Part shown: piece by piece, positions 1 to 23,720 of the stretch
How positions within the stretch are numbered: position 1 is the first letter of the stretch
Layout: every line of letters begins with the position of its first letter
NCBI GenBank assembly: GCA_017609205.1
Contig: JAFCEL010000001.1
Coordinates: forward strand, 390,001-422,000
Direction of reading: 5' to 3'
Origin: Candidatus Saccharimonadota bacterium
GTDB taxonomy: Archaea > Nanobdellota > Nanobdellia > Pacearchaeales > GW2011-AR1
Length of the DNA: 32,000 nt
Translations under genes and position numbers: made by a program
The notes under the pieces: model-generated
Told to the model about the DNA's origin: nothing
Database searches by the model: none
What the model saw: the letters and a program-made list of their open reading frames with translations, nothing else

Positions 1-89
1 GATCCTCTCTAACAGAAAATTTTAAACTCACGGGGGGCTTTTTTAGCCCAGCTCGTGCCTTCCGCTTCGCTTCGGAAACTTCGTTAAAT
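1..89 (+). repeat. GC-rich attC-like intergenic repeat, copy A (5' end cut by window edge)
   Basis: About 50% GC against an AT-rich background. TAACAG (10-15) plus ATTTTAAAC (19-27) parallels TAACAGCGATTTAAC of copy C. CTTCG-rich middle (GCTTCGCTTCGG, 64-75). Ends ACTTCGTTAAAT (78-89), as in copies B and C. GTTAAAT (83-89) fits GTTRRRY. Confidence 0.5.
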
Positions 90-120
90 TCCGATGTTAA
101 GTGAAATTCCGAACCCCTTA

Positions 121-140
121 AAAACGAAATGTTTATATAT
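121..140 (+). promoter_or_regulatory. Archaeal BRE/TATA promoter for the 160..717 gene
   Basis: AAAACGAAATGTTTATATAT: purine-rich AACGAAA followed by TATA box TTTATATAT (132-140), centred ~24 nt upstream of ATG 160. The same layout recurs at several other genes in the window. Confidence 0.45.
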
Positions 141-159
141 CAATTAATATTATTTTACT

Positions 160-717
160 ATGGGCAAATTAGATTTTAAAACTGCGTTCAAATACCCTTT
201 CAACAGGATGAAAGGATTATTAAACATATTATGGATTTTATTACCTATTTTTGGATGGTTTGCTTTAGGAGGATATGGCGTTAGAATTATCCAAGAATTT
301 AGTAAAGGTAAATTTAAAAAATTACCTGTTCTTAAATTTGGTAGTGATATGAAATTAGGATTTTTTATGTTCCTAAAAAGTATTCCTTTTGTTCTTGCAT
401 ATATTGTAATTCTTATCTTTGCCGAGAGAGTAGGAGGGCCTTGGACCGCAGGATTAACCAGGATTTTAGTAGAACTCTTTGTAATCCCAATATTGACTAT
501 AAATTTTGTTAATAAAATGACTGTTGGTTCATTTTTTGAATTTGGAATACTAAAATCTGTTTTTAATAATTTAGGAGACTATATCATAACAATATTGAAA
601 AGTATCTTGTTATTTTTAGTATATCTAGTTATGGTTATAATCTTAGTTGGTATCCCTGCTATGTCTTTTACTCAGAATATATTTTTAGCAGATTTTTACA
701 GAAGAAGAATAAAATAA
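160..717 (+). CDS. DUF4013-like integral membrane protein
   Basis: 185-aa ORF. The N-terminus (KTAFKYPF...LLNILWILLPIFGWFALGGYGVRIIQEF...GKFKKLPVLKF) matches my recollection of the DUF4013 pattern (YPF ... GY..R.I ... LP.F). Multiple hydrophobic helices. Confidence 0.6.
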   Translation: MGKLDFKTAFKYPFNRMKGLLNILWILLPIFGWFALGGYGVRIIQEFSKGKFKKLPVLKFGSDMKLGFFMFLKSIPFVLAYIVILIFAERVGGPWTAGLTRILVELFVIPILTINFVNKMTVGSFFEFGILKSVFNNLGDYIITILKSILLFLVYLVMVIILVGIPAMSFTQNIFLADFYRRRIK

Positions 718-726
718 TATTTTTCT

Positions 727-881
727 TATAGGGGGTTCGGAACTCTGCGCTCACTTCGTTCGGGACGCCTAACACGGCTTATGAGGTTCGCTTCGTTGCA
801 CTTCGCTCTCCCAAATTGAGTTCTCAGCTCTGTTCCCTTTGGTCACGAGGAAAACTGAAACTTCGTTAAATCGCATATGTT
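727..881 (+). repeat. GC-rich attC-like intergenic repeat, copy B
   Basis: Homologous to copy C with indels. Shared blocks: CTGCGCT (745-751 vs 1331-1337); 15-nt identity CGTTGCACTTCGCTC (794-808 = 1385-1399); 22-nt identity ACTTCGTTAAATCGCATATGTT (860-881 = 1421-1442). GCCTAAC (767-773) fits RYYYAAC and GTTAAAT (865-871) fits GTTRRRY. Starts with TATAGGGGG (727-735), which recurs at 1527-1535. Confidence 0.6.
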
Positions 882-923
882 TATTTCAATTGTTCGAAGT
901 GCACCAATAATGTTAAAAACAAA

Positions 924-933
924 CATTTATTTA
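924..933 (+). promoter_or_regulatory. Possible TATA box for the 959..1288 gene
   Basis: CATTTATTTA lies ~30 nt upstream of ATG 959. A second TATA-like TTTATAT (944-950) is too close to the ATG. Confidence 0.3.
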
Positions 934-958
934 CTTAAAATGATTTATATCAAATATA

Positions 959-1288
959 ATGAAAATAAATTTTATACCAAAAAGCAATCTAAGTAAATGG
1001 TCTGTTGGATTGATTATCATAACTCCAATATTATTCTACATGGGTATGTCGTTTGTAGGTTTTTATCAATCTGTTCCGGCTGGGAAAACAATACTCCATG
1101 ACATCATTGCCAGACCAGGATTAGCGCTATCAATGTTGGGGGGATTCTTTTCTGGTATTGCCGCTTTTTTTTGTGGTATAATTGGTATTATAAGAAAGAA
1201 AGATTATTCTGTTTTTGTATTTATATCCACACTTCTAGGTTTTTTTGTTTTGTTATGGGTTATTGCAGAGATTTTGTTCCCACACTAA
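959..1288 (+). CDS. Small hypothetical membrane protein (about three hydrophobic helices)
   Basis: 109-aa ORF with hydrophobic segments (WSVGLIIITPILFYMGMSFVGF, LALSMLGGFFSGIAAFFCGIIGII, VFVFISTLLGFFVLLWVIAEILF). No family recognised. Confidence 0.55.
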   Translation: MKINFIPKSNLSKWSVGLIIITPILFYMGMSFVGFYQSVPAGKTILHDIIARPGLALSMLGGFFSGIAAFFCGIIGIIRKKDYSVFVFISTLLGFFVLLWVIAEILFPH

Positions 1289-1328
1289 ATGTGCCCATTG
1301 AAAAACTTCTTCGGCTCCGCCTAGACCA

Positions 1329-1442
1329 CGCTGCGCTTTTGCCTATCGGCTCGGGGCGTATAACAGCGATTTAACTGTTTCGCTCGTTGCACTTCGCTCC
1401 ACCCAAATCGGCTAACGCCGACTTCGTTAAATCGCATATGTT
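1329..1442 (+). repeat. GC-rich attC-like intergenic repeat, copy C (contains a perfect 10-bp inverted repeat)
   Basis: GCGATTTAAC (1366-1375) and GTTAAATCGC (1426-1435) are exact reverse complements separated by 50 nt of partly self-complementary sequence. ATTTAAC fits RYYYAAC and GTTAAAT fits GTTRRRY. Shares 15-nt and 22-nt identical blocks with copy B. Confidence 0.6.
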
Positions 1443-1542
1443 CAATTGAGTTATCGCTTAATTTTAAGAAACGGGAAGGGGGCTTAGTCTCTGCGGGACA
1501 GATAGTTTCGGCTTCGCCTCAAAGTTTATAGGGGGCGTCTTT
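1443..1542 (+). repeat. GC-rich repeat tail carrying the left arms of the inverted repeats that bracket the helicase operon
   Basis: GGGAAGGGGGC (1473-1483) and AGGGGGCGTCTTT (1530-1542) are reverse complements of 7184-7194 and 7178-7190. AATTGAGTTATC (1444-1455) resembles AATTGAGTTCTC (814-825). TATAGGGGG (1527-1535) repeats 727-735. Confidence 0.6.
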
Positions 1543-4500
1543 ATTTTTTTACTAGAATTATTCTTCCATTTTGATTGCTCACTATATTTTCTTTTTCTAA
1601 ATATTTTATAGCTTCTTCTATCTTTGATTTAATTTTCCCACCAGTCCTATTGTTGTGAAAGATTCCTTTCGCAATATCTGCAACTAGTGTTTCTTTTGTT
1701 GCTCCAAAAGTATTTTTTAGAATATCCACAATAGCACCGCCAATCTCTTCTTTTGGAATTAATGTAAATGGTCGTTGTGTTTCTTTTGAAATCCTAATAG
1801 GACAAACACCATCAATCTTATCAATTGAAACAGTATTTCCATAGACATAAATATTCTTATATTCTCTTTTCATTTCATTGACTAAATCATCAAAATTTCT
1901 CTTTAATCTGGCACCTAATTTATTTATCCCAAACGAACTCAGAACTCTTTTGTATAATAATTCCTTTTCAATAGGCGATTCAACTTCTAGAACAGAGAGC
2001 ATTAATTCTTTAGCTTTTGTCCCGCCCCAAACCATATATCCATAACCATCAAACTCTATTTTTGCTCTGGATTTTGGTAATTCAGCAACTTCATATTTTT
2101 CATATTTGTCTTTTAAAGAAACTTCCTTAAAATCTTCCACATCTTCAACCTTTTCAAATCTCAATCCCTCTCTGTGATTCACTTTTTTTGATTTCAATAA
2201 TGAATTAACTTTTTCATTTATTTTCTTGATTTCATATTCCCTGTTATTTAACCAATCATCAGACCAGATTCTGTGAATATTCCATCCAAGACTTTCTAGA
2301 ATAAGCTGCCTAACTTTATCTCTGTCTCTTGCAAATCTTGAAGAGTGATATTGTGAGCCATCACATTCAATTCCCAAAATATAAACCCCTGGTTTTTTAG
2401 GGTGCTTTATTGCCAAATCAACTCTGTAACCAGAGCAACCCACCTGTGTGCTGATGGAAAATCCCTCCTTAACTAATGCCTCATAAACAGATTCTTCAAA
2501 ACTTGAATCAAAATCCAATCCTTCGGTTGTCTGTAAAAACTTGTTGAAATCCTTGTTCTTTGCATAATCCAGATAATATTTTAAATAACGAACCCCATCA
2601 ACATTTATTTTATCCTCATCTAATTCTTCAGGTAAGATAGAAGATAAGACTACTGTTTTGAGTCTTGATCTTGTTATAGCAACATTTAATCTTTTATATC
2701 CTCCTTCCTTATTAAGCGGACCAAAATGGTAAGTTAATTTCCCTGAAGAATCTTTTCCATAGCCAACACTCAATAAAATAATATCTCTTTCATCTCCCTG
2801 AACTGTCTCAAGATTTTTAATAAACAGGTCTTCTCTTGTAGAATCTATTGATTCATCAATATTTATACCAACGACTCTAAACTCTTCTCTGATTGCGTTT
2901 TCCTGTGCAATGCTAAATGCAATAATCCCCATAGACTTTTCAGGGAATTTCTTTTTAAGTTCTTTGTATTTTTTAACAACCTCCCTTGCTTCGACCCGAT
3001 TCTTTCGTGATTTGCCTCTATCATAAACACCATTTTTAACATAGACAAAATCTAACCCAGAATTATCTTTTATTTTTGAATTTGGAAATGTAATAAGTCT
3101 ATGTTCATAAAAAAATCTGTTTGAAAAAGCTATTAAATGCTCATTCTTGCTTCTGTAATGCCAAAGAAGTGGCTTAGTTCTAAATTTAGTGCTGCATTCA
3201 CTAAGAAAGCTCTCTAAATCCTCAATCTCTTCTTCTACAATTTCGTCCTCTCGCCCACTCATAAAAAATGAAGTTGGTGGAAGTTGTTGCATATCTCCGA
3301 CCACAATAGCCTGTTTCGCCCTAATCAAACAAGGGACAGCATCTTCTGGCATAATTTGGGATGCCTCATCAAAAATGACAACATCAAACTTTATAACCTC
3401 TGGATTTATGTATTGGCTAACAGAAAGAGGACTCATCATAAAGCAGGGCTTTAAAGAAAATACTAAATTTGGTATCTCTTCAAGTAAGTTTCTTATTGGT
3501 TTCAATCTTCTTTTCTTTTCGTTCTCTCTTTTTAGGATTGAAACTTCATTTATTCCATGGCTATGATAATTTACAGATGGCTGGTCTTGTTCAATGGAAT
3601 TCATTATTTTATACCGTTTAATATCTCTAACCTCAAAGTCCTTCTCTCTAAACATTTCAACCTTATTTTTTGGAGATGGAATATTATTTTGTCTTAATAT
3701 CTCTTCAAGCAACTGCAAATAGTAAGCTTTCAGGAAAACAGAACTTAATTTTGAAATTATGTCCTCTGTAAAATATCCTCTTATAAACTCTCTTATTTCA
3801 TCGTTCAGAGAGTTGTATTGTTCTTTAAAGATTAAGACATCATCCAAGTGTTCTATATTCTTAATAAACTCGTGGATTTTATCTTCTATTTCATTTATGT
3901 TCTCGGCATTATTCAAGATTGATTTAGATAAGTAATCGTCAATATCTTTAATCTTCTCTTTTAATTCTTCTAAAGAATCTCCTTTATTTTCTTGCGATAC
4001 CCAAAATCTGATTAGCTTAACAGAATCTCTTGATATTCTTTCAGCATTTTTGTGTATTTCTGAAAATTCCTCTGCTTTTTTATTTAACTCATTCAAGTTC
4101 TGTTTGGAATAAATATCCCCCAAATCTCTTACATATTTTTTGTTTTGGTTCTCAATCTTTTTGTGTTTCCCTAAAGTTTTTATGTAGCTATTCTTTAATT
4201 CAAATAACTTAATCCAATCGCTATGCCCTAATTTCTTATTAGAAAATCTCTCAAGCTCTTTTTTAACATTTTTGTATTCTTGATTAAATATCCTTGCCAA
4301 AAAAGAAGTTTCTCTAAAAATCCTCTCATAAGTGTCCGTTTTGTTCTCAATAAATTTCTCTTTTACATTTTCTAGAATTTTTGATTTAATATCATTTATT
4401 TCACTAAGATTTTTGTTTAATTCTGAAATTATATTTTTGTAATCTTCAAATTTTTCAGAGAGAAAATATTCAGGTACATCTTTTATCTTGTTAGCTGTTC

Positions 4501-6052
4501 TATGGAGTTTACAGAATTCTTCCAATTCCTTTAAGGTTTTAATATCTAGGTTTGTTTTATTCTTAATTTCTTTGAGAAACTCCAGAATTTCCTTTAATAT
4601 CTGATGCGTATTATCAATTAAAGTTTTAAATTTATTTCTTGATAAAGTAGTGTTCTTTGAAACTTTGAAATTGAAATAAATATTTTCCATAGGTCGTGGG
4701 ACTTTCTCAATAATCAAATCCAGATCTTGTATCTTTGATAATAATTTTGTAAATTTCTCTTCATTGAATGAGATTGTATCGCTAAGATTTTTATCAAGGA
4801 TTTCAACATTATATAGTCTTGCCAACTCACCACGGATATCATAAATGGATAATGATCTTGGCTTATGCTTCTTGCATAGAAAATCATAAAAATTATTCAA
4901 AGCTCTTTGAGTTTCAATATAATCTGCAAACGAATATCTTTTTACACTCTCTTTAATCTTCGGGGATGTTTCTAATTCTGAAATTAATTGTTTAATAACC
5001 TCTTTTTTATTCCCCTTATAATTGTGTAAATTTAAACAATATCTACCTAAACCAACTTCTTGTAATCTTTTATGGACAACATTAAGAGCTGCCATTTTCT
5101 GGCTCACAAAAAGAATTTTCTTTTTCTTTTCTAAAAGTGCAACAATTATATTTGAAATTGTCTGGCTCTTTCCAGTTCCAGGAGGTCCCTGTAAAACAAA
5201 AGTTACTCCGGCTTTTGCTAATTCAATGGCTAATTTTTGAGAAGAATCTGCTGGCAAAACATCTATATCCTTGGCATCATCAAATTCATCTCTTTGCATT
5301 TCGGCAATTTCATCTTGTAATGCATTCCTATCCCCAACAAATGCCTTAACCAAATTACTTTCATGAAGAAGTTTATTATGCTCTGTCAAATCCCTAAACA
5401 TAATGTATTTCTGGTACGAAAATATGTCAATGTAAATTTCTTTTGTAACTTTCCAATCTTTCATTCCTGAAATAACTTTCTTTATAGAACTTAGATAATC
5501 TTCAATTGATTGTTCTTTAAATTCTGGCAAATTAATATCAAAGTCGTGTGATAGTTTCTCAATTAAAGCAGGATTGACTTGGAGATCCTCAGAACCAGAA
5601 ACCAGCTCAAAACGATGTTTGTCTTTTGATGTTGAAGAGAGCCTATTTAGACTAACTGGATAAAGAAATATTGGAGCTTGTGAATAAAGCTCAGAATTTT
5701 GTGATTCTTTATATTTCAAAATTCCTAAACTTACAAAACAAGTGCTTATACCCAATTCCTGAAAATTTTCTTTTGTTTTTAGGTAAAGGTTAGTTAATTT
5801 TTTATCAACAATATCCTCTTCTTCTGAACAAAGCCAAAGTCTCTCTTTTGGTTTTCCATTCTCTTTTTTTAGAATATTGACATTTTTTTCGTGATGCAAA
5901 TCTTCAATAATCTGCTTAAACTCAGGTTGTATGACTTGCAATGACTTAGATTTTGTAAACCGATAATTTACAAGATTATTCCTTTTAGATAAATCTATCA
6001 GTTTTTTCTTCCAATATTCCGCTTTCTTGGTTATAATTTGCTGGGTATCCAT
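1541..6052 (-). CDS. Large SF1B (Upf1/DNA2-like) helicase: DUF4011-like N-terminus, AAA_11/AAA_12 core, DUF559/Vsr-like endonuclease domain, DUF3320-like tail
   Basis: Intact 1503-aa ORF. The N-terminus (YWKKKLIDLSKRNNLVNYRF) looks DUF4011-like. Helicase motifs: Walker A VLQGPPGTGKSQT (nt ~5165-5200), motif II VVIFDEASQ (nt ~3356-3382), VVGDMQQLPPT, TVQGDERDIILLSVGYG, RLNVAITRSR. The C-terminal GYRVDLAI...ILGIECDGSQYHSS...RDRDKVRQLILESLGWNIHRIWSDDW looks like a PD-(D/E)xK DUF559-type nuclease. Family names come from remembered motifs, not a search. Confidence 0.8.
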   Translation of the reverse strand: MDTQQIITKKAEYWKKKLIDLSKRNNLVNYRFTKSKSLQVIQPEFKQIIEDLHHEKNVNILKKENGKPKERLWLCSEEEDIVDKKLTNLYLKTKENFQELGISTCFVSLGILKYKESQNSELYSQAPIFLYPVSLNRLSSTSKDKHRFELVSGSEDLQVNPALIEKLSHDFDINLPEFKEQSIEDYLSSIKKVISGMKDWKVTKEIYIDIFSYQKYIMFRDLTEHNKLLHESNLVKAFVGDRNALQDEIAEMQRDEFDDAKDIDVLPADSSQKLAIELAKAGVTFVLQGPPGTGKSQTISNIIVALLEKKKKILFVSQKMAALNVVHKRLQEVGLGRYCLNLHNYKGNKKEVIKQLISELETSPKIKESVKRYSFADYIETQRALNNFYDFLCKKHKPRSLSIYDIRGELARLYNVEILDKNLSDTISFNEEKFTKLLSKIQDLDLIIEKVPRPMENIYFNFKVSKNTTLSRNKFKTLIDNTHQILKEILEFLKEIKNKTNLDIKTLKELEEFCKLHRTANKIKDVPEYFLSEKFEDYKNIISELNKNLSEINDIKSKILENVKEKFIENKTDTYERIFRETSFLARIFNQEYKNVKKELERFSNKKLGHSDWIKLFELKNSYIKTLGKHKKIENQNKKYVRDLGDIYSKQNLNELNKKAEEFSEIHKNAERISRDSVKLIRFWVSQENKGDSLEELKEKIKDIDDYLSKSILNNAENINEIEDKIHEFIKNIEHLDDVLIFKEQYNSLNDEIREFIRGYFTEDIISKLSSVFLKAYYLQLLEEILRQNNIPSPKNKVEMFREKDFEVRDIKRYKIMNSIEQDQPSVNYHSHGINEVSILKRENEKKRRLKPIRNLLEEIPNLVFSLKPCFMMSPLSVSQYINPEVIKFDVVIFDEASQIMPEDAVPCLIRAKQAIVVGDMQQLPPTSFFMSGREDEIVEEEIEDLESFLSECSTKFRTKPLLWHYRSKNEHLIAFSNRFFYEHRLITFPNSKIKDNSGLDFVYVKNGVYDRGKSRKNRVEAREVVKKYKELKKKFPEKSMGIIAFSIAQENAIREEFRVVGINIDESIDSTREDLFIKNLETVQGDERDIILLSVGYGKDSSGKLTYHFGPLNKEGGYKRLNVAITRSRLKTVVLSSILPEELDEDKINVDGVRYLKYYLDYAKNKDFNKFLQTTEGLDFDSSFEESVYEALVKEGFSISTQVGCSGYRVDLAIKHPKKPGVYILGIECDGSQYHSSRFARDRDKVRQLILESLGWNIHRIWSDDWLNNREYEIKKINEKVNSLLKSKKVNHREGLRFEKVEDVEDFKEVSLKDKYEKYEVAELPKSRAKIEFDGYGYMVWGGTKAKELMLSVLEVESPIEKELLYKRVLSSFGINKLGARLKRNFDDLVNEMKREYKNIYVYGNTVSIDKIDGVCPIRISKETQRPFTLIPKEEIGGAIVDILKNTFGATKETLVADIAKGIFHNNRTGGKIKSKIEEAIKYLEKENIVSNQNGRIILVKK

Positions 6053-6056
6053 TCAA

Positions 6057-6539
6057 TTATCTCCTTTTATTCACTTCTTTTTGAAATTCACTTCTTATCT
6101 GATTAATTTTCTTTTCATTTAATTTGATAAGAATAGATTTACATTTAATCAGAAATTCAGGGGCTTTTGCTATCATTTTATTGTATTGTTCATCTGGAAC
6201 AGTCCTGTCAACATAATACTGGGAATCTATCCTCGCCTTTAATGAATCCTCAGTAAAGTCTAATTCTTCTTTGTTGAAATAATCTTTGAGAAACCTCTTT
6301 GCAAATTCTATTGTACAGGAATGAATTTCACATTTTACCCCAATCTTTGTTAAAATAGAATAAAGTGAAAAGTAGAGGGTATAATACGCTGTTGAAATTT
6401 TCCAGTCTTTTACAACATTTATTCTCATTGATTCAAGAGATTCCTCAGCTTTTTTGATATAAGCATGAGCAAGATCAGAATTTGGCTCAATCAGGCTTAA
6501 CCCTCCTTTCTTTTTAGAACACCATAATATCTTATTCAT
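6057..6539 (-). CDS. HEPN-like all-helical protein, partner of the upstream nucleotidyltransferase
   Basis: 160-aa ORF that overlaps the MNT gene stop by 8 nt and ends 4 nt before the helicase start. AHAYIKKAEESLESMR...YYTLYFSLYSILTKIGVKCEIHSCTIEF resembles archaeal HEPN (PF05168-type) helices. I find no canonical Rx4-6H motif. Confidence 0.5.
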   Translation of the reverse strand: MNKILWCSKKKGGLSLIEPNSDLAHAYIKKAEESLESMRINVVKDWKISTAYYTLYFSLYSILTKIGVKCEIHSCTIEFAKRFLKDYFNKEELDFTEDSLKARIDSQYYVDRTVPDEQYNKMIAKAPEFLIKCKSILIKLNEKKINQIRSEFQKEVNKRR

Positions 6540-7122
6540 TTTTGAACACCGCCTCTATAAATTGTTCAGCATTAACGAAAACAATATGATTTTTTAATAT
6601 TTCCTTTAGCAGAATGTCTTTGTTTAGATTCTTTTCAAAAGTCTTTATAGGGTAACATTTTATACTTATTTCTATTCCCAAGTTTCTTGAAACTTTCTTT
6701 ATCTCATTTCTATTGTAATCACCAGCAATAAAAATATCCAAATCAGAACCTTTTTTCTCCAACCCCTTGACATAACTCCCAAAGATAATACCAATTCCCT
6801 TAATGTGTGGAGTAATTTTTTCTATAATTTCCTTAATAATAAGCCTCTTTTCCAAAAACGCAATCGCTTTGTATTGCTCAACAAAAACAAGATACCTTTT
6901 AGTAAACTCACTTTGATTAATCTTATAAGTCTTAATCTTCCCCCTTGTCTTTGATTCTATAATACCTTTATCTTCTAAATCTTCAAGGATGAGCTGCGAA
7001 GTTCTCGGACTTATTTTTAATAATTTTTCAACCTCCCGAACATAATATTCTCTCTTAAAATCATTTGTGAATAGAGACAATACCAGTAATGTATTCTCAG
7101 TGATTCTTATTTTTTCATACAT
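6532..7122 (-). CDS. Winged-helix DNA-binding domain fused to a minimal nucleotidyltransferase (MNT)
   Basis: NTase signature GIIFGSYVKGLEKKGSDLDIFIAGD. The N-terminal part (REVEKLLKISPRTSQLILEDLEDKGIIESKTRGKIKTYKI) looks like a MarR/TrmB-type wHTH. I place the start at ATG 7122 (MYEKIR...) because a strong TATA box lies ~28 nt upstream. The ORF track's start at 7170 is the alternative. Confidence 0.75.
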   Translation of the reverse strand: MYEKIRITENTLLVLSLFTNDFKREYYVREVEKLLKISPRTSQLILEDLEDKGIIESKTRGKIKTYKINQSEFTKRYLVFVEQYKAIAFLEKRLIIKEIIEKITPHIKGIGIIFGSYVKGLEKKGSDLDIFIAGDYNRNEIKKVSRNLGIEISIKCYPIKTFEKNLNKDILLKEILKNHIVFVNAEQFIEAVFKNE

Positions 7123-7143
7123 ATGTATTATTAAACATACAGG

Positions 7144-7156
7144 TAATATATAAAGC
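7144..7156 (-). promoter_or_regulatory. TATA box for the MNT/HEPN/helicase operon
   Basis: The minus strand reads GCTTTATATATTA, centred ~28 nt upstream of ATG 7122. Confidence 0.45.
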
Positions 7157-7170
7157 TTTTGGTGGTTCAT

Positions 7171-7279
7171 TAAAGTAAAAGACGCCCCCTTCCCTTAGAA
7201 TATAGTCTGCTTCGCAGAATTGATATGGCGAGAACTCAACTTTGATTTTTTGCCTTTGGCATCGTCGCCTAACTTAAAT
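7171..7279 (-). repeat. GC-rich repeat block related (in inverse orientation) to copies B and C; carries the right arms of the bracketing inverted repeats
   Basis: AAAGACGCCCCCTTCCC (7178-7194) is the reverse complement of sequences at 1530-1542 and 1473-1483. GAGAACTCAA (7230-7239) is the reverse complement of TTGAGTTCTC (816-825). GCCTAAC (7267-7273) reads GTTAGGC on the minus strand, a perfect GTTRRRY core. CTGCTTCGCAG hairpin at 7208-7218. Confidence 0.55.
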
Positions 7280-8380
7280 TCAAAGCCCTAATTGTTTGAT
7301 AAATTTCTTTTTATCAAAGACCTCTATTTTTTCGTATTCCTGTCCTGTACCGAGAAAGAGGATTGGTTTTTTTGTGACATATCCCACAGATAGTGCAGTT
7401 CCTCCTTTTTCATCTGTGTCTGCTTTTGTTAAAATTATTCCGTCAATTCCAATTGCCCAGTCAAAGCTTCTAACCTGCTCAATAATATCATTTCCAGCAA
7501 TTGCCTCGCCGACAAAGATTTTTGTATCTGGCTTGCAAACTTTGGCAATTTTTTCAATTTCTTTTAAAAGATTTTTTGCAGTATGCATCCGTCCTGCAGT
7601 ATCTATAAGTACACAGTCGATAAAATTCTTCTTGGAGTATTGAATTGCGTCAAAACCTACAGAGGCTGGGTCAGAACCATATTTATTTGCAATAACTTTT
7701 ATTCCTAATTTCTCTCCATGTTTTTTTAGTTGTTCTATTGAAGCAGCACGAAATGTATCTGCAGCAGCGAGAGTGCAAGAAATATCCTTCTTTTTCAAAT
7801 ATTTCGCGATTTTTGCAATAGATGTTGTTTTGCCTGTTCCATTAATACCACAGAATAAAATTACATACGGCTCTTTTGATTGGTCCTGTTTTTTGTCTTT
7901 GATTCTTTTGGTGATATCGAATGGTTCTATTAAGATATCCTCTATGATTTCTTTTAAAGAATCTTTTATCTCTTCTTCAATCTCTTTTTTTAATAATTCT
8001 TTTCCAATGATTTTTTCCTTAAGCTGCTTGATGACTTTCTCTGCAACTTCTAATGCGACGTTATTTTCTAAGAGAAGCATCTCTAGTTCTTCTGCATAAA
8101 TCTCAAAATCTTTTTCAGATATTTTAACTTTTGAAATTCTTGAGGTTACTTTTTTAAAAAAAGATTCTGTTCCAGGTTCGGATTTTAACTTTTTTTGAAT
8201 GTTTTTTAATTCTTCAGTATCTGGTTCGAATTTTTGTTTTCCAGGGTCAAATTTTAGGGGCATCTCTATTTCTTGTTTCTTCTTTTTGGATTTGCCCTCT
8301 TTTTTTTCTTCAACTGGAGCTGATTTTTCTGATATCTTCTTTGTCCAGTCTTTTAATTTTTCTTTTAGTTTGTTAAACAT
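7280..8380 (-). CDS. ftsY: Signal recognition particle receptor FtsY
   Basis: K/E-rich N-terminal domain followed by an SRP-GTPase domain: ILFCGINGTGKTTSIAKIA (G1), DTAGR (G3), LTKADTDEKGG (G4). Confidence 0.9.
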   Translation of the reverse strand: MFNKLKEKLKDWTKKISEKSAPVEEKKEGKSKKKKQEIEMPLKFDPGKQKFEPDTEELKNIQKKLKSEPGTESFFKKVTSRISKVKISEKDFEIYAEELEMLLLENNVALEVAEKVIKQLKEKIIGKELLKKEIEEEIKDSLKEIIEDILIEPFDITKRIKDKKQDQSKEPYVILFCGINGTGKTTSIAKIAKYLKKKDISCTLAAADTFRAASIEQLKKHGEKLGIKVIANKYGSDPASVGFDAIQYSKKNFIDCVLIDTAGRMHTAKNLLKEIEKIAKVCKPDTKIFVGEAIAGNDIIEQVRSFDWAIGIDGIILTKADTDEKGGTALSVGYVTKKPILFLGTGQEYEKIEVFDKKKFIKQLGL

Positions 8381-13006: not shown

Positions 13007-13136
13007 AAATAGAGATAAAAAAACGGGTTTTTAAAGTTAATTAATCATCATGCTAAGAATCTTATCTTACAAATTTTTTTATAGGGTTTATCCTTTGGGA
13101 ATTTGTTTCACAGGATTTGTTCAATTTGAAATTAAT

Positions 13137-13207
13137 GGTCCTGCCCAGAATCGAACTGGGGTCTCTTCCACGTCAAGGAAACGTCTTAGCCACTGGACTA
13201 CAGGACC
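13137..13207 (-). tRNA. tRNA-Val (anticodon GAC)
   Basis: The minus strand reads GGTCCTG TA GTCC AGTGGCTA AGAC G TTTCC TTGACGT GGAAG AGAC CCCAG TTCGATT CTGGG CAGGACC. 71 nt, with a canonical T-loop. Confidence 0.85.
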
Positions 13208-13268
13208 TTCTTTTAATAATAATTTTTTATTTAATAAACTTTATATACAATATTTTATTATTCTTTCT

Positions 13269-15128
13269 ATGTTTAGTAAAAGAGGAAGTAAGAAAGGACA
13301 AATCACAATTTTTCTTATTCTTGCGATTCTTCTAATTGCAGGAATTGGAGGGTATTTTTTATTAAAGAATAGATTATCTTCTTCTGAAATCCCTGCGAAT
13401 TTAGAGCCTGTTTATACTACTTTTTTGCAATGTTTTGAGAATGATGTTCTGACGGGAATAGACGTTTTAGAAAGTCAAGGAGGGTATATTGAGTTACCTG
13501 ATTTTGAAGTCGGTTCTGCCTATATGCCCTTTGGTTCTCAACTTTATTTTTTTGGGAATCCGATTCCTTATTGGTATTATGTTTCTGGAAATAATATTCA
13601 GAAGGAGCAGGTTCCTTCTTCTTCTGAGATGGAAAGGCAATTAGGAAATTTTATCGCAGGAGAAATCATGGATTGTGTTTTTGACTCTTATTATGAGCAG
13701 GGTTTTGAAATTAGCTATGATAAGCCAAATGTTGATGTTAATATTGAAAAAAATTCTGTTAGAGTTAATCTTAAAATGAATCTTAATATTACTAAGGGAG
13801 ATGATACTGTTCTTGTGAGAGACCATGAGATCGAAGTTAATTCTAAGCTTGGTTCTCTTTATGAATCAGCTAGAAAAATCTATGATTATGAGCAAAATAA
13901 TCTTTTCTTAGAAGAATATGCTATTGACAATCTGAGACTTTATGCTCCTGTGGATGGTGTTGAATTAACTTGCTCTCCTCTCATATGGAAGGCAGATAAT
14001 ATTTTTGAAGATCTAAAAAATGCAATAGAGCAAAATACTTTGTCCTTGAAACTTAAAGGTGGTGATTATTCTCTTTTAAGTAAAGAAGATAAATATTTTG
14101 TTATTGATTTAGATGTTGGTTCAAATGCAAGGTTTTTGACTTCAAAGAATTGGCCAAGCAGTTTTGAAGTGACGCCTGCTGAGGGAAGCATTCTTCTTTC
14201 TAATCCTATTGGAAATCAAAAAGGATTAGGAATACTGGGTTTTTGTTATGTTCCTTATCATTTTGTTTATAGTATAAAATACCCTGTTTTGGTTCAGGTT
14301 TATGAAGGAGAGGAAGTCTTTCAATTTCCAGTTGCAGTTGTTATTGAGGGTAATAACCCAAGACAGGCGCTCAAATCCAATGCTGTTGAGGTTGAGTCTC
14401 CTGGTATCTGTGAGCATAAAAATACAGAGGTTGAGGTGAGGGTTTATGATTTAAAATATAATCCTCTTGATGCAGAAATATCTTTTGAGTGTTTTGGAGA
14501 GAGGTGTTCTATAGGGAAAGCAAAGGAGGGTGTTCTTGTCTCTGAATTCCCCCAGTGTGTGAATGGATATATTATTGCTGAAGCAGACGGCTTTGCGAAA
14601 TCAAAATCTCTTTTTTCAACAGTGTCGAGTAATATTTCAGAGATATTCTTGGATAAACTTTATGATGTTGATATTGACCTTAAATTAGATGGAGCAGATT
14701 ATAAAAAAGGTGCTGTTATTGTTTTTGTTTCTGATGATTTTTCAAAGACCATTGTTTATCCTGATACTTCTAGTGTTGAATTAAAGCAGGGGCAATATGA
14801 AGTTCAAGTTTATGTTTATAGGAATTCTTCTATCAACTTAGAGGGATCGTCGATGAAGCAGTGCCTTGAGGTTCCTCGTGAAGGACTCGGGGGTTGGTTT
14901 GGTTTGACTGATGAAAAATGTTTTGATGTTGAAATTCCTCCTCAGATTATTTCGAATGCTCTTGCAGGAGGAGGCAGACAAAATCATTATATTTTGGAAA
15001 GTGACTTAGAAAACGCAGAGGTTATTGAGATAAATGCTCAGAGTTTGCCGACTCCGAAGTCTCTTGAGCAGTTACAGGAAAATTATATTTTGTTTGAAAA
15101 TAAAGGGCTGGATATATATTTCAGATGA
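13269..15128 (+). CDS. Large secreted or surface protein with an N-terminal class III (type IV pilin-like) signal or anchor; function unknown
   Basis: The start is moved to ATG 13269 because the track ORF (13050) reads through tRNA-Val. The N-terminus is MFSKRGSKKGQITIFLILAILLIAGIGGYFLL, i.e. a basic stretch, G/Q, then a hydrophobic helix. 619 aa, several Cys, no recognised domain. The stop overlaps the next gene's start (ATGA at 15125-15128). Confidence 0.7.
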   Translation: MFSKRGSKKGQITIFLILAILLIAGIGGYFLLKNRLSSSEIPANLEPVYTTFLQCFENDVLTGIDVLESQGGYIELPDFEVGSAYMPFGSQLYFFGNPIPYWYYVSGNNIQKEQVPSSSEMERQLGNFIAGEIMDCVFDSYYEQGFEISYDKPNVDVNIEKNSVRVNLKMNLNITKGDDTVLVRDHEIEVNSKLGSLYESARKIYDYEQNNLFLEEYAIDNLRLYAPVDGVELTCSPLIWKADNIFEDLKNAIEQNTLSLKLKGGDYSLLSKEDKYFVIDLDVGSNARFLTSKNWPSSFEVTPAEGSILLSNPIGNQKGLGILGFCYVPYHFVYSIKYPVLVQVYEGEEVFQFPVAVVIEGNNPRQALKSNAVEVESPGICEHKNTEVEVRVYDLKYNPLDAEISFECFGERCSIGKAKEGVLVSEFPQCVNGYIIAEADGFAKSKSLFSTVSSNISEIFLDKLYDVDIDLKLDGADYKKGAVIVFVSDDFSKTIVYPDTSSVELKQGQYEVQVYVYRNSSINLEGSSMKQCLEVPREGLGGWFGLTDEKCFDVEIPPQIISNALAGGGRQNHYILESDLENAEVIEINAQSLPTPKSLEQLQENYILFENKGLDIYFR

Positions 15129-18100
15129 AAATGAATAAAAAAACAGGGATGGAAGTTTGTTTGATATTAGGAATTATCTTTTTCTCATTTGTTAGTGCAG
15201 GAAGTTATTCTCAGGCAAATCCTAATTATGGTCTCATAAATCAATATGTAGATGGGGGTTCAGTTAATTTAGATCATAGAAAATGTGAAGCAGGACAGGA
15301 TTTTGTTTTGCAGATTTCTCCATTTGGTTGTACGCCTCCTGTTGTGAGAAGCGATCTATTAGAGGAGCAGAATGTTCCTGTATTTTGTGCTATTGCTGCA
15401 ACGCAGGTTAATCCTTTAATTGATGTCGAAGCTATTGAGGGAATATCTTTTTCAGGAGAATATCCTAAAGAGGTTTCAGGAATTGGATTCCATCCTGCTA
15501 GAGCCGCATTAGGAACTGCTAAGAAGACAAATTATCCTCTTTTAGAGAATATTGGCTATGCAGTGATTGTTTTGAAAAAACAGCCGAATGAATCAGCAAT
15601 GCCTGATTTTGTTGAGGGAAATTTGACTGCGAAAATTAGATATGATATTAAGAATGCTTTTGGAGTTGGCAATGCTTTATTTTATCTTCCTGAGATGGAT
15701 GATGGTGAATTTGAATTGAACAAAGGCTATTATAAATTCTGGAAGAAATTTTACTTAAGAGCAGAAAGAATTGAGGAAAATTATGCAGTTGTTTCAATAT
15801 ATGATGATTCAAAGAAAATTTCTACAACAACTCTCAAAAAGGGAGAGACCTCAGGTAAAATTTCTGTTCCAGGTTTTGGTTGTATGGCTAAACTACAATT
15901 GAGGTTGGATGATCTTGAAAACCCAGGGACAACTGCTAAATTAGATGTTAATGGAGAAATTATCGAACTTGTCGAAGGGCAGAAATTTTTAGAAAATAAA
16001 TGCCAGATTGTTGGAATAGAAAAACAAGGGCTTGTACAGAAGGTTAAGATAAAGTGTTATGAGGATAAAAAATCAGATATCTTTGAGTTAAAAATTGTTC
16101 CAAGAGTAAGGATTGAATTTGACAATGATGGTGGAGAGGATTATGGTATTGAAGAGGAAATAGGAGGAACAGGATTTAGAATTGTGTCTATAAAAGTTGA
16201 AGATAAGGAGGGTATTAAGGAGGAAAAGTTAATCGTTGAATTGCAGAAGGATGATGATAAGAAGAGTTTGAGATATGGTGATGCAATAACTATTGGTGAT
16301 AAGAGCGTTAGACTTCTTGGGTTTGCAGGACCGCAGGATTCTGAACTTGCAGGAGATGTTAGAACTTATTATGAATCAGCGATGAAAGATTATGAAACTA
16401 TTATTAATAGTTTTTCTAGTGAGAGTTGCGATGGGTTTAAGGATTGTGGAGAAAAGGCTTTTATTGAGGAGATGAAACTCGCTTATGATATTGGACAAAG
16501 CAAGACTTTTTATGAATTATGTAAGAAGTTTGATGAAAAATATCCTGATTCTGATAAGGAATTAGAAGAATGCAGTGAGGATTATAAGCTTTCAAGTAAT
16601 GAACCTTCAAGTATACAGGTTTTGATTAATGGCGAGGTTAAGGATATTTCTTTTATTGGGGTTATTGAATCCTCTTTTGATGATTATGGAGCAAGAGTGG
16701 TTGTTGATGGAGCGACTTATGATTTAATAAAGGATAAGGTTTTTTATCTTGCAGATGGTCAGAAGGAATATTTGCAACTTCTTGGATTAGAAGAGGACTA
16801 TGCGAAGATTAAGGTTTATCTTAGGAAAGATAATTCCGATGGTTTTGTGAATGGCATATATACTTTGAAAAAAGGGATTCATGAAAGTTTTGGAAGTGTT
16901 CATGATATCTATCTTGGGGATATTAATTTGAGGAAATATGCTAAAGTATCTGTGATTTCTAACATTGATAATGTTGGTAGTGTGGGAAATTTTGGTTTTA
17001 AAATTGGGATTGAGAAAAGAGCAATCAAACTTGCACCTGAAAAGATTCAAGAAAAAATAGATTCTTTAAATGAAACTATCTACAAATGGGAGGAGCGTTC
17101 TGAGAATTTGGGACAAATGGTTAAAGGTTTAAAGGGAGCCTGTGTTGCGACGAGTGGTTTTTTAATAGCTAAAAATTTCTTGTTTAATTCTGGGGATTCT
17201 CTTGCAAGAAAAGATGTGATGGATATTTGGAATAAAAAATGCACACGATTAATTAGTGAAGGGAAGTATAGAACGCATGATGAATGTTATGCAGATAATG
17301 ACAAGGCAATTGACGACGCTGTTAAAAATAGGGCTAAGATAATGAAAGAAATCAGTGGCGAATTTAGTAAGATTCAGGATGATCCTGATATAACAACAGA
17401 GAAGTGGGCGGGATTAGAAAAAGAGATTAATGACAAAAAGCTTTGGGAAAAAATAAAAACAAGGTCTGATTTTTTAACAGAATTGAAGTCTGATTTGAAA
17501 GAGTGTTATGGGGACGAAAAAATAGTTGTTAATGAAAGAGAGAGTTTTTCTATTGATGATTTGATGGAGGATAATAAGAGATTTGGTTCAGAATATTTGA
17601 CTATTACTCAATTAAGGGATTTGATGGTAGATGCTAAGGATTGCAAGAATAATCCTGAACTTGCAAAACAGAGATTGAATTCTTCATTAAAATCTTTGTG
17701 GGTAAATAGCCAATCAACTTATATCAAAGAGGGTCTTTCTGAGGAATTAGAGAAGGGTGGTTTTGGGGATTTTGAGGTTGATTCTTATGGAGATAGGAAT
17801 GCAATTGAGGGTATTTATTATGGTGGGACTCTTACTTCTGATAAGATTTTGAATTCAGACAATGAAAAATTTCTAAAAGATAAAGAAGATGATGGAAAAG
17901 TGATAAATTATCCTGTGCAGATTATTATTTATAATAATCAAAAGTATCTTGTATTATTAGAGCCTACAAAAAGAGGGGATTATATTGTTGACAAGGTATA
18001 CGAATTTAGGGATGCAGAAGAGGGGAAGTTAATTGTTGGAAAAGAGCGGGACGATATTAGAAATAAATTTAAGTCTTTTACTCTTGAGGATAGAGATTCT

Positions 18101-20098
18101 TATAACAATCCGTTCAAGGCATCGATGGGAGAGACAAAACCTGTTGTTAGGTATTTTGAGACAGAGCCTCATAAGGGTTTGCCTGCTGTTGTTCCTTTTG
18201 ATTTGAAGAAAGGGTGGTATGTTTATGTAAGCCAAGATATTGGTTTTGCAGGGGGAACTGCTAGTTATGATGATTCAGGTGCTGTGAGAAATTATTATAT
18301 TTGTAATGTTGGAAAAGATGGAATCGAAGATGGAATGCGTCCTGATGATAAATGTAGGATGATTAACAAAGGAACAGGACAGCTTTATAATCGATTTGGT
18401 GGGTTGGATGAGTCAGAAGCTGGTAGGTTAGTTAAATGTGCAGAGGATTCTATTGTGCAGGCATCAAGGCAATATGGAAAGAAAAAGATTTCAATTAGCA
18501 CAACCTGTGGAGGAAGTGTAACTCTTGATGTTGGAAGTCCTGCTGTTGATATCCCTTCTATGCAATGCCAGAATTTTATGTCCCCTTCTGATTGCCAGAT
18601 TTTGTTTAATGTTTGTGACCCTGTGATTTGCCCGTCGAGTAGATGTGATTTTGGAGGCAGGTTTCCTGTAAAAGATGTTGTTCAGTCAGGAATTATCGGC
18701 AGTTTGTTGCTTTGCCTCCCTAATTTTGGAAATCCTGCAAAAGGAGGTGTTGCTATTCCTATTTGTTTGACTGGATTAAAAGCAGGAATTGATGGTTTGC
18801 TGTCAGTATATAAATCTTATAGAGATTGTTTACAAGAAAGTCTTGATACTGGGAAGACTGTTGGAATATGTGATGAAATATATTCAATTCATCTATGCGA
18901 ATTTATGTGGAGACAGGCATTGCCTCTAGCAAAGTATTCTATTCCTAAGATTATAGAATTTTTGATTGACCAAAATGCGAGAGGGGGAGGGGAATACCTC
19001 ATGTTTAGGACTGCCTTGAATAATATGGATAATTCAATGAATTACTTTACAAATTATTATGCTGCAAATGCTTTCAAGGCGTTCAAAGTGCGTTCTGTTG
19101 AGGAGGTTGGGACAGAGGTTTGCAGAAATTATATCTCTGGCGTTGGCCCAAATATCGACGGGATGTTAGAGTCTTTCACAGAACCAGACTCTCCTGCTCA
19201 GTTTCATGGAAGGTTTGATGAAATTCCTTTCACAACAGCAACAGTACCAGCAACTTCTCATTATAAAGTGTTTTATCATATCTATGCAGGAAAAGATTCG
19301 CGAGTATATTACTCTGTTTATTTAAGGGGTGCTCCAGAAAGTTCTTATTATATGGATTCAACTCAAACAAGAATTGTAGACTCTGGGTATATCAAAGCAG
19401 GAGAATATGTCTCACAGACAAAAGATTTTACTGCTCCTTCAGGATATAAGGAAATGTGTATTAGGGTAAATGAGCAGGAGGAGTGCGGATTTAAAGAAGT
19501 TTCTACTTCTTTTGCTGTAAACTATGTTAAGGATTCTTATACTAAGTCACAGGCAACTGAGAAGAATATACAGTCAGAGAGTGAATGTATTTCTGGAACA
19601 GTCAATACTGGGACTATTCTATCAGGGGCATTAAGCTCTAATTTGCAGGAGGGTGCTGAGAAAATTGTTAATCCAAAGATTTATGAGAGAGGAATTATCA
19701 GAATATGTGCTCATGATAATCCTGGTATTGGGACAGATGCAAAAGCAGAGGCAAATGGCTCACGTTGGGTTGAAGTTGGATATTGTGATAAGGATAGAGA
19801 AATAAAATGCTGGCTTGATACAGAGAGTGTTAAGAAGATAATCAGGGATAAGGAAGTTAAAGGCGAGACACTTGAAGAAATTAATAGCAATTATATGAAT
19901 ATTCTTGGAGATACAAAAGAGGCAAAAGCAGCAAAAGAAAAACTTGTTGGGTTGGGTAATGAAAAAGATTCTAAGAAGATTATTCAGGTTATTGATGAGA
20001 TAGTTGATGATTTGATTATGAATAAAGATAAAGCACATGCTTTATTATTAAGAGCACAATCTTATGGAAAATTAGCAATAGAAAACGGTTCTATTTAA
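15125..20098 (+). CDS. Giant (1657 aa) Cys-rich secreted or surface protein; function unknown
   Basis: Intact ORF with an N-terminal hydrophobic signal (MKMNKKTGMEVCLILGIIFFSFVSAGSYSQ). I count about three dozen Cys. Dense Cys module CQNFMSPSDCQILFNVCDPVICPSSRCDFGG (nt ~18560-18657). No recognised catalytic motif. Confidence 0.75.
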   Translation: MKMNKKTGMEVCLILGIIFFSFVSAGSYSQANPNYGLINQYVDGGSVNLDHRKCEAGQDFVLQISPFGCTPPVVRSDLLEEQNVPVFCAIAATQVNPLIDVEAIEGISFSGEYPKEVSGIGFHPARAALGTAKKTNYPLLENIGYAVIVLKKQPNESAMPDFVEGNLTAKIRYDIKNAFGVGNALFYLPEMDDGEFELNKGYYKFWKKFYLRAERIEENYAVVSIYDDSKKISTTTLKKGETSGKISVPGFGCMAKLQLRLDDLENPGTTAKLDVNGEIIELVEGQKFLENKCQIVGIEKQGLVQKVKIKCYEDKKSDIFELKIVPRVRIEFDNDGGEDYGIEEEIGGTGFRIVSIKVEDKEGIKEEKLIVELQKDDDKKSLRYGDAITIGDKSVRLLGFAGPQDSELAGDVRTYYESAMKDYETIINSFSSESCDGFKDCGEKAFIEEMKLAYDIGQSKTFYELCKKFDEKYPDSDKELEECSEDYKLSSNEPSSIQVLINGEVKDISFIGVIESSFDDYGARVVVDGATYDLIKDKVFYLADGQKEYLQLLGLEEDYAKIKVYLRKDNSDGFVNGIYTLKKGIHESFGSVHDIYLGDINLRKYAKVSVISNIDNVGSVGNFGFKIGIEKRAIKLAPEKIQEKIDSLNETIYKWEERSENLGQMVKGLKGACVATSGFLIAKNFLFNSGDSLARKDVMDIWNKKCTRLISEGKYRTHDECYADNDKAIDDAVKNRAKIMKEISGEFSKIQDDPDITTEKWAGLEKEINDKKLWEKIKTRSDFLTELKSDLKECYGDEKIVVNERESFSIDDLMEDNKRFGSEYLTITQLRDLMVDAKDCKNNPELAKQRLNSSLKSLWVNSQSTYIKEGLSEELEKGGFGDFEVDSYGDRNAIEGIYYGGTLTSDKILNSDNEKFLKDKEDDGKVINYPVQIIIYNNQKYLVLLEPTKRGDYIVDKVYEFRDAEEGKLIVGKERDDIRNKFKSFTLEDRDSYNNPFKASMGETKPVVRYFETEPHKGLPAVVPFDLKKGWYVYVSQDIGFAGGTASYDDSGAVRNYYICNVGKDGIEDGMRPDDKCRMINKGTGQLYNRFGGLDESEAGRLVKCAEDSIVQASRQYGKKKISISTTCGGSVTLDVGSPAVDIPSMQCQNFMSPSDCQILFNVCDPVICPSSRCDFGGRFPVKDVVQSGIIGSLLLCLPNFGNPAKGGVAIPICLTGLKAGIDGLLSVYKSYRDCLQESLDTGKTVGICDEIYSIHLCEFMWRQALPLAKYSIPKIIEFLIDQNARGGGEYLMFRTALNNMDNSMNYFTNYYAANAFKAFKVRSVEEVGTEVCRNYISGVGPNIDGMLESFTEPDSPAQFHGRFDEIPFTTATVPATSHYKVFYHIYAGKDSRVYYSVYLRGAPESSYYMDSTQTRIVDSGYIKAGEYVSQTKDFTAPSGYKEMCIRVNEQEECGFKEVSTSFAVNYVKDSYTKSQATEKNIQSESECISGTVNTGTILSGALSSNLQEGAEKIVNPKIYERGIIRICAHDNPGIGTDAKAEANGSRWVEVGYCDKDREIKCWLDTESVKKIIRDKEVKGETLEEINSNYMNILGDTKEAKAAKEKLVGLGNEKDSKKIIQVIDEIVDDLIMNKDKAHALLLRAQSYGKLAIENGSI

Positions 20099-23554: not shown

Positions 23555-23642
23555 GGTCCTGTAGCTCAGTCTGGATAGAGCGACTGCCTTCTAACTCTTC
23601 GGAGGTGAGCAGTAGGTCGCAGGTTCAAATCCTGTCAGGGCC
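23555..23642 (+). tRNA. tRNA-Arg (anticodon TCT) with a 14-nt intron after position 37
   Basis: GGTCCTG TA GCTC AGTCTGGATA GAGC G ACTGC CTTCTA[ACTCTTCGGAGGTG]A GCAGT AGGTC GCAGG TTCAAAT CCTGT CAGGGCC. 74 nt plus a 14-nt intron. Confidence 0.85.
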
Positions 23643-23720
23643 ATTTTGAGAATGATTTTTCAATTTATTTTCTAGAGAACTAGTAAGGCTGTTAGGTTAC
23701 TGGAATCTTGGTTCAGAAAT

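Follow-up and report, generated by a model that had tools for sequence, protein, structure and literature searches.

Folded repeats at gene-cassette boundaries suggest an integron-like capture platform with a XerA-type recombinase in DPANN and other archaea

Integrons serve as the paradigm of gene capture through recombination at structured, single-stranded sites, and have been taken to rely on a single clade of integrases (IntI) and a single family of sites (attC). We analyzed a 32-kb stretch of a Pacearchaeales genome (contig JAFCEL010000001.1, positions 390,001 to 422,000; the window), at the left end of which three copies of a GC-rich repeat (A, B and C) lie among small open reading frames (ORFs). 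An original prediction, made from the letters of the window, had taken the repeats for attC sites of an integron cassette array. Here we report that they belong to a family of folded elements that probably act as structured site-specific recombination sites, filling the role of attC in a cassette platform of DPANN and other archaea. The site family is apparently undescribed: the element sequence was not found in the literature searched and has no Rfam family, and the literature on archaeal integrons and archaeal tyrosine recombinases, Xer reviews and a tyrosine-recombinase survey contain no description of such a system.

In an integron, the recombinase gene is divergent from a co-oriented array of sites, and orphan arrays without an integrase exist. 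One imperfect-palindromic site stands at the 3' end of each cassette, its outer boxes ending in AAC and beginning with GTT. Exchange takes place at the GTT box, and the stretch following each site is complementary to the stretch that precedes its successor. Cassettes include toxin-antitoxin and defence genes, which often lie in reverse orientation. The arrays considered here resemble integrons in each of these respects. Nanoarchaeota are among the hosts of canonical integrons (Ghaly et al. 2022, Sci Adv; PMC9668308). The archaeal integrons of that study have the same host range as our elements, including Nanoarchaeota and Pacearchaeales, and are mostly integrase-less arrays in metagenome-assembled genomes (MAGs). 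However, they contain canonical attCs (e.g. ACATAAC...GTTATGG) and IntIs with the IntI-specific domain, and the contigs studied here are not in the accompanying IntegronFinder output.

Two further systems are comparable. Xer/dif and its exploiters, such as integrative mobile elements exploiting Xer (IMEX, for example CTX phage) and the pdif modules of Acinetobacter, also combine a Xer-family recombinase with modules bounded by short sites, and for CTX phage the substrate is a single strand folded into a hairpin. In contrast to these, no 28-bp dyad-symmetric site was seen here; the units measure 100-170 nt, lie in one orientation, and the array begins at a half-site beside the recombinase gene. 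The Vibrio cholerae repeats (VCR) of the superintegron are likewise uniform long repeats (~120 nt) between small ORFs in a chromosomal array. They are bona fide attCs of one genus, whereas the present element keeps exact 20-mers across archaeal phyla.

A family of folded elements distinct from attC

As had been predicted, the three copies lie on the same strand and stand out by their GC content (0.53-0.54, compared with 0.325, or 32.5%, for the window). The sequence ACTTCGTTAAAT occurs exactly, on the + strand, at 78, 860 and 1421 and at no other site in the window, and it was not found in the 7 kb of the source contig upstream. In the source-contig locus (L001; all loci are designated in this way) there were 3 matches at ≤1 mismatch vs 0.22 expected, a count reached by 0/200 shuffles. 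The 15-nt and 22-nt blocks described as common to copies B and C were found at 794-808/1385-1399 and 860-881/1421-1442, respectively. The perfect 10-bp inverted repeat of copy C, which forms its inner stem, was confirmed as well.

The 20-mer ACTTCGTTAAATCGCATATG was found exactly in 28 species-representative genomes of at least 8 archaeal lineages (Pace-, Woese-, Aenigmat-, Micr-, Alti- and Hydrothermarchaeota, Methanosarcinales, and the anaerobic methanotrophs ANME-1), often near contig ends, and also in three MAGs labelled bacterial. Note that the element-bearing MAGs L006, L008 and L025, labelled Saccharibacteria or 'bacterium', may be either misbinned archaeal contigs or true bacterial hosts. 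A covariance model built from the element alignment (R1) recovered 52 copies in the 20-mer loci, in same-orientation arrays of up to 6 with a spacing of 0.4-1.5 kb and usually 1-2 ORFs between. A metagenome scan with a two-block pattern added one contig only (L005). In IMG/VR, 6 matches to a generic pattern were obtained, of which 0 were confirmed by R1.

The unit of ~100-170 nt reads nnnnnTAAC-A-[inner stem left arm]-GG-[hairpin 1]-CCCAAAT-[hairpin 2]-ACTTC-[inner stem right arm]-ATAT-GTTAnnnnn-(C)AATT. Its core measures 93-130 nt and a left extension of up to ~75 nt precedes it. The (T/G)AAC and GTT(A/C) outer boxes are nearly invariant. The 10-12 bp of the inner stem form an uninterrupted helix from which no base bulges out. 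The only asymmetric feature, a 3-nt bulge (ATA), lies on the top strand's 3' side, where the outer stem passes into the inner one. The whole folds as a three-way junction with invariant single-stranded motifs.

This folded structure is supported by covariation. In copies that had not been selected by the 20-mer, the inner stem was wholly changed yet paired (GATTAAGAG/CTCTTAATC, GGGCTTAAACG/CGTTTAAGCCC and GCGATTATCTG/CAGATAATCGC). Paired cells of the alignment reached 91.6% vs 75.9% in shuffles, and cells with a double change numbered 188 vs 54. The covariation score was 0.415 vs 0.136 in shuffles (0/500), with slid controls at ≤0.10. The conserved secondary structure for which the original prediction had proposed folding as a check is present, both as strong covariation in the family and in copy C itself, whose bottom-strand DNA folds with -16.9 kcal/mol (z=-2.76). 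The fold of copy A was marginal and copy B folded no better than shuffles (z>0). As single-stranded DNA, the bottom strand was more stable than the top strand in 47/49 copies.

A strongly covarying fold that usually follows a co-oriented ORF, with a promoter-like TATA after it, would also be expected of a structured RNA (a 3'-UTR, terminator, processing element or small RNA) co-transcribed with the upstream gene, the arrays then reflecting one element per transcription unit. In Rfam 15, however, the window and 20 loci gave no match at gathering scores and only unrelated noise at E≤10; rRNA, tRNA or another known RNA was on this ground rejected as the source of the cross-phylum 20-mers. Nor was there an excess of G·U over A·C mismatches, and in one array all intervening ORFs are reversed (L022, see below). 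A structured RNA also leaves unexplained the exact 20-mers shared across phyla and the complementarity of neighbouring flanks, the attI-like half-site, the recombinase linkage and the GTTA breakpoint described in the next section. We regard it as quite improbable.

To compare the element with attC, we used as proxy a covariance model (R2) of nine archaeal attCs verified in recombination assays together with attC(aadA7), all from Ghaly et al. 2022 (PMC9668308, Data S9, S10). R2 detected 12/12 attCs in three class 1 integron loci (E 2e-17 to 1e-5), among them sites of 90 nt and 127 nt. Of the elements it detected 0/52 at E≤10. Conversely, R1 had no match in the class 1 integron control loci. The R/Y positions of the R''/R' consensus (RYYYAAC / GTTRRRY) are not respected in the element, as in AATGAAC and GTTCATT. 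Unlike attC, with its R and L boxes and extrahelical bases, the element did not show the L''/L' box with extrahelical bases and unpaired central spacer. The 3-nt bulge, the two internal hairpins and the invariant CCCAAAT and ACTTC are without counterpart in attC. A contig of the Pacearchaeota genome L030 carrying two elements 1.6 kb apart is absent from the IntegronFinder table of Ghaly et al., although the genome was screened and another of its contigs is listed as a cluster of attC sites lacking integrases (CALIN; PMC9668308).

The element is not a canonical attC and appears to form a separate site family, and the identity given to it by the original prediction is not supported. The ATTTAAC and GTTAAAT proposed as R'' and R' are the freely covarying arms of the inner stem, and the conserved boxes are the outer TAAC and GTTA. 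Similarly, the GCCTAAC read as R'' of copy B, actually at 767-773, is homologous to GTATAAC of copy C (1358-1364) and not to its ATTTAAC. What survives is the architecture, an integron-like array of apparent cassette-boundary recombination sites with the polarity of integrons, the TAAC box towards the preceding ORF and the GTT box distal.

A linked recombinase, a half-site and the point of exchange

All six-frame ORFs were scanned with IntI1 by phmmer. This direct scan, and not the Pfam survey of neighbouring ORFs, provided the link to a recombinase: L011 encodes a 261-aa tyrosine recombinase and L030 a truncated one, in both cases divergent from the array and ~1 kb away from its first element. 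Homologues with 62-76% identity occur across Aenigmat-, Pace-, Woese- and Nanoarchaeota and Thermoplasmatota. Four homologues were picked by taxon and contig size alone, and five further genomes were fetched blind to arrays. R1 found an array upstream of the gene, on the opposite strand, in 7/7 recombinase loci (L011, L030 and the five blind ones).

The recombinase is of XerA type and lacks the IntI-specific domain, unlike the IntI-type integrase expected by the original prediction. Its best solved structures are XerA (4A8E and 5HXY, E=1e-39), and it scored 206.7 bits against NF040815 (XerA_Arch), below the equivalog cut-off of 220. Identity to IntI1 was 31%, with an alignment gap of ~40 aa at the IntI additional domain (near patch III). 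The IntI family TIGR02249 gave 179.8 bits vs a cut-off of 265, in two stretches, and the match to IntI4 (2A3V) was also in two stretches.

Between the recombinase gene and the first cassette lies an attI-like half-site, (T)CGYTTAATAGT-TGTTA-nnnnn-AAT, which resembles the right end of the element only. In L047, L048, L052 and L011, its nnnnn segment was the complement of the first element's left flank at 6/6 positions, and in L049 at 5/6. In the Thermoplasmatales locus L048 (252-5868), the cassettes beside the recombinase contain what appear to be defence genes, for a SIR2_2 protein of 1236 aa and a HATPase_c_3 protein of 541 aa. By the standard of cassettes, both are very large.

The same relation holds between neighbouring elements. 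We compared the 6 nt after the right box of each element with the 6 nt before the left box of the next. Consecutive pairs were complementary at ≥5/6 positions in 12/22 cases (9 perfect), a count reached by 0/20000 permutations. In contrast, the two flanks of one and the same element were complementary in 4/49 cases, and random between-genome pairs in 5.8%. In two copies, L010:3746-3843 and L011:2955-3053, the two flanks of the same element are perfect complements over 10 bp. L011:2955 stands first in the array behind the attI-like site, and the recurrence of one flank class on both of its sides is not readily explained by a cassette model.

Because the arms of the inner stem always match within a single element, the exchange point must lie outside the inner stem. 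In the GAAATG family of elements (core identity 0.82-0.97), four different right flanks occur and the core type tracks the left flank; a core tied strictly to one flank was rejected, the left-flank tendency not being clean. Three strains have this recombinase platform in common, and the breakpoint itself is visible between L050 and L051. Up to and including the third element, these two loci have 99.88% identity over 10 kb; they split exactly after ...TATAAGTTA (...AAGTTA) into different toxin-antitoxin cassettes, PemK in L050 and MazE and MNT-HEPN in L051. This maps the exchange to the right box, the position that integrons use too (G|TT). In L022 (5449-7633), all three inter-element ORFs run opposite to the elements. 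Segments between elements possibly also invert; the difference between L050 and L051 is a replacement, not an inversion.

These observations suggest the following scheme. A full platform would consist of a XerA-family tyrosine recombinase gene, the adjoining outward-facing attI-like half-site (T)CGYTTAATAGT-TGTTA, and a cassette array. Each cassette would have its own BRE/TATA-like promoter (BRE, B recognition element), unlike in integrons, and one element at its end. Strands would be exchanged at the right box or immediately ahead of it (...ATATG|TTA), so that a cassette would carry TTAnnnnn at its 5' end and nnnnnTAAC with the folded core at its 3' end, and in a circular cassette the two ends would pair and complete the outer stem. 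We infer that the recombinase catalyses the exchange and acts on a folded single strand, probably the bottom strand, and that cassettes move as circles. On balance, and with less confidence than for the role of the sites, we favour the view that this is a second, independently built integron-type platform for gene capture in archaea, with a horizontally mobile XerA-clade recombinase that lacks the IntI domain, promoter-bearing cassettes and a folded three-way-junction site that is invisible to current integron finders. It would span DPANN, methanogens/ANME, Thermoplasmatota, Altiarchaeota and Hydrothermarchaeota.

The array of the window

The features of the window are listed in Table 1. Under R1, copy C scored 90.9 bits (E=5e-19) and copy B 43.8 bits (E=2e-7, with the long variant of hairpin 2). 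Copy A, at 12.9 bits (E=0.37 without filters; L001:7075-7178), belongs to the family only weakly; it is degenerate inside and has a right end of the same type as L017:5557 and L005. Copy B is chimeric, since the arms of its inner stem do not match, the left arm (GGCTTATGAGG type) being mismatched to the right arm (CGTTAAATCGC). According to the original prediction, each copy follows a small membrane-protein ORF or the window edge. This is correct for copies B and C, which follow ORF1 (DUF4013) and ORF2, respectively; copy A is preceded, 47 nt away, by an ABC-transporter ATPase gene that stops 47 nt before the window. ORF2 has no Pfam family match.

Table 1. Coordinates of the elements and genes at the left end of the window
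Feature	Coordinates	Strand	Description
Copy A	5-108	+	Degenerate element; left box TAAC 10-13; right end GTTAAATTCC-GATGTTA, GTTA 96-99
ORF1	160-717	+	DUF4013 membrane protein between A and B; Pfam PF13197, E=3e-9
Copy B	727-891	+	Left extension 727-764, core 765-891; TAAC 770-773, right box GTTT 879-882
ORF2	959-1288	+	109-aa predicted membrane protein between B and C
Copy C	1300-1452	+	Intact; left extension ~1300-1355 (CCACGCTGCGCT motif and hairpin); core 1356-1452
Copy C, left box	1361-1364		TAAC
Copy C, inner stem	1366-1375 with 1426-1435
Copy C, hairpin 1	~1378-1402
Copy C, single-stranded motif	1403-1409		CCCAAAT
Copy C, hairpin 2	1410-1421
Copy C, right box	1440-1443		GTTC
Reverse block	1541-7170	-	Between copy C and the truncated copy
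DUF4011 helicase	1541-6052	-	With MTES_1575 nuclease domain (Pfam)
HEPN protein	6057-6539	-	Pfam
Nucleotidyltransferase (MNT)	6532-7170	-	Pfam
Truncated element	7233-7273	+	Left extension (AACTCAACTTTGA..., hairpin GCCTTTGGC) and left box GCCTAAC only

A fourth, truncated element was recognised by alignment to the left extensions of copy C and of L021:1966. It stops exactly at TAAC (7270-7273), 6 nt before the ftsY stop codon (7280-7282). The syntenic Pacearchaeota genome L027 has a two-element array downstream of ftsY as well. Positions 6012-7241 of the window (~1.26 kb) are 88% identical to L007, from another species, in which a full element follows the block. At L007:1415-1457 the DUF4011 helicase gene is reduced to its first 14 codons, followed by unrelated DNA; this deletion breakpoint is away from any element.

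Placed between an ABC-transporter operon and ftsY, the window array (A, B, C and the stump at 7273) is an orphan, comparable to a CALIN; no attI-like half-site between a gene and the array was seen in the window or in its 7 kb upstream. Since only copy C is intact and the cassette signature is lost, the array is probably an inactive fossil. By analogy with related loci, its recombinase would lie to the left. The original prediction had expected the integrase on that side, and the position agrees; none was found within the 7 kb that reach to the contig end.

Several smaller features were noted around the copies. An inverted repeat, TTCCGAACCCC / GGGGGTTCGGAA at 107-122 / 727-742, flanks ORF1 and is unlike the cassette-type pairing of flanks. 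Directly 3' of copy C, ATCGCTTAATTTTAAG...GGGGGC at 1453-1486 is like the attI-like half-site (TCGCTTAATAGTTGTTA...CGGGGGC) without the TGTTA box, and could be a remnant of one. Inverted repeats GGGAAGGGGGC/GCCCCCTTCCC (1476-1486 / 7184-7194) and GGGGGCGTC/GACGCCCCC (1531-1539 / 7182-7190) enclose the helicase-HEPN-MNT block, beside which stands a conserved hairpin module, TAGTCTGCTTCGCAGA..., that recurs in L007 and L027. These repeats and the hairpin module may form part of cassette ends. Small minus-strand ORFs at 769-876 and 1321-1437, both starting MRFNEV, were rejected as spurious, as the length of hairpin 2 varies (12, 13, 14 and 16 nt) and the frame is lost. ORF1 was likewise rejected as a travelling cassette, having homologues in L037-L040 without an adjacent element.

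The window stems from the genome of an AT-rich archaeon and contains a Gins51 homologue and one 89-nt tRNA gene. The tRNA, at 23555-23643, was found by Rfam only (59.9 bits) and not reported by ARAGORN; it probably contains an intron, as expected in an archaeon. Two adjoining large ORFs of 692 aa and 1657 aa (13050-20098) had no Pfam match at E≤0.01.

Alternative explanations and implications

The closest competitor is exploitation of Xer/dif, in which the recombinase would be the host's single XerA, the half-site would be or overlap the chromosomal dif, and the cassettes would be Xer-dependent integrative modules like IMEX or the pdif modules of Acinetobacter. The family and structure matches of the recombinase to XerA agree with this, as does the position of its gene among housekeeping genes (e.g. 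ribosomal protein S10, topoisomerase VI and primase), and modules between inverted sites recall pdif modules. However, the NF040815 score is under the equivalog cut-off, and the L030 copy is truncated. With 62-76% identity from phylum to phylum, the recombinase is more conserved than FtsY is among Pacearchaeota (57%), suggesting that it has spread horizontally. By eye, neither the half-site nor the element contains an 11-6-11 dyad (28 bp, two 11-bp arms and a 6-bp spacer) or anything like the dif of P. abyssi, ATTGGATATAATCGGCCTTATATCTAAA. Moreover, in Thermococcales dif is not adjacent to xerA (PMC2958812). We therefore consider this explanation unlikely.

A selfish dispersed repeat of the miniature inverted-repeat transposable element (MITE) or repetitive extragenic palindrome (REP) type, inserting itself in intergenic DNA and building up arrays by chance at hotspots, would account for the many singletons beside housekeeping genes and at contig ends and for the self-complementary flanks of L010 and L011:2955. 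In general, however, own-flank complementarity is at background, and the complementarity seen spans intervening genes. Orientation is uniform within arrays, there are no target-site duplications, no association with a transposase was seen among 143 neighbouring ORFs, and no element was confirmed in viral contigs. Such an origin is very improbable. Finally, a CALIN of ordinary attCs with IntI encoded elsewhere would fit the array architecture, the outer boxes, the polarity and the core length, and canonical integrons do occur in these hosts, including the genome of L030, but given the control-validated R2 result, the continuous inner stem without extrahelical bases, the unmatched internal motifs, the missing L030 contig and the lack of the IntI additional domain in the linked recombinase, it is hardly tenable.

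Several findings weigh against a role of the elements as sites of a dedicated cassette platform. The recombinase may be the housekeeping XerA of the host rather than a dedicated integrase, and in the Pfam survey recombinases were not enriched among the 143 ORFs neighbouring the 20-mer loci. Many copies elsewhere are singletons beside housekeeping genes, and in L048 and L052 the scores of some array members reach no more than 22-28 bits. The AAGAG-type core family varies on both flanks. In the window, the flanks A to B, B to C and C to stump were not complementary, in the flank test or by eye. The 7 kb between the window and the contig end on its left contained no recombinase, and none was found in the window or 30 kb downstream. 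ORF1 is a conserved DPANN gene rather than a typical accessory gene: its >400 DPANN homologues (60-75% identity) occur in differing surroundings and lack adjoining elements. Stem mismatches (G·T 36 vs A·C 35) are uninformative as to the strand; because the two are about equal, the strand inference rests on energies alone. Recombination was not seen directly, and reads were not searched for circles or excision junctions.

If the elements are indeed recombination sites of an integron-type platform, the integron design would have evolved more than once, or would predate IntI. DPANN and other archaea would then harbour a large pool of mobile cassettes that goes unseen at present, with toxin-antitoxin, SIR2, nuclease-helicase and methyltransferase genes as its cargo. 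The variable region between the ABC operon and ftsY in the window would be explained as a fossil cassette array. The covariance model and the half-site motif would serve to annotate such arrays, and together they would provide a handle on gene exchange among the tiny genomes of DPANN archaea.

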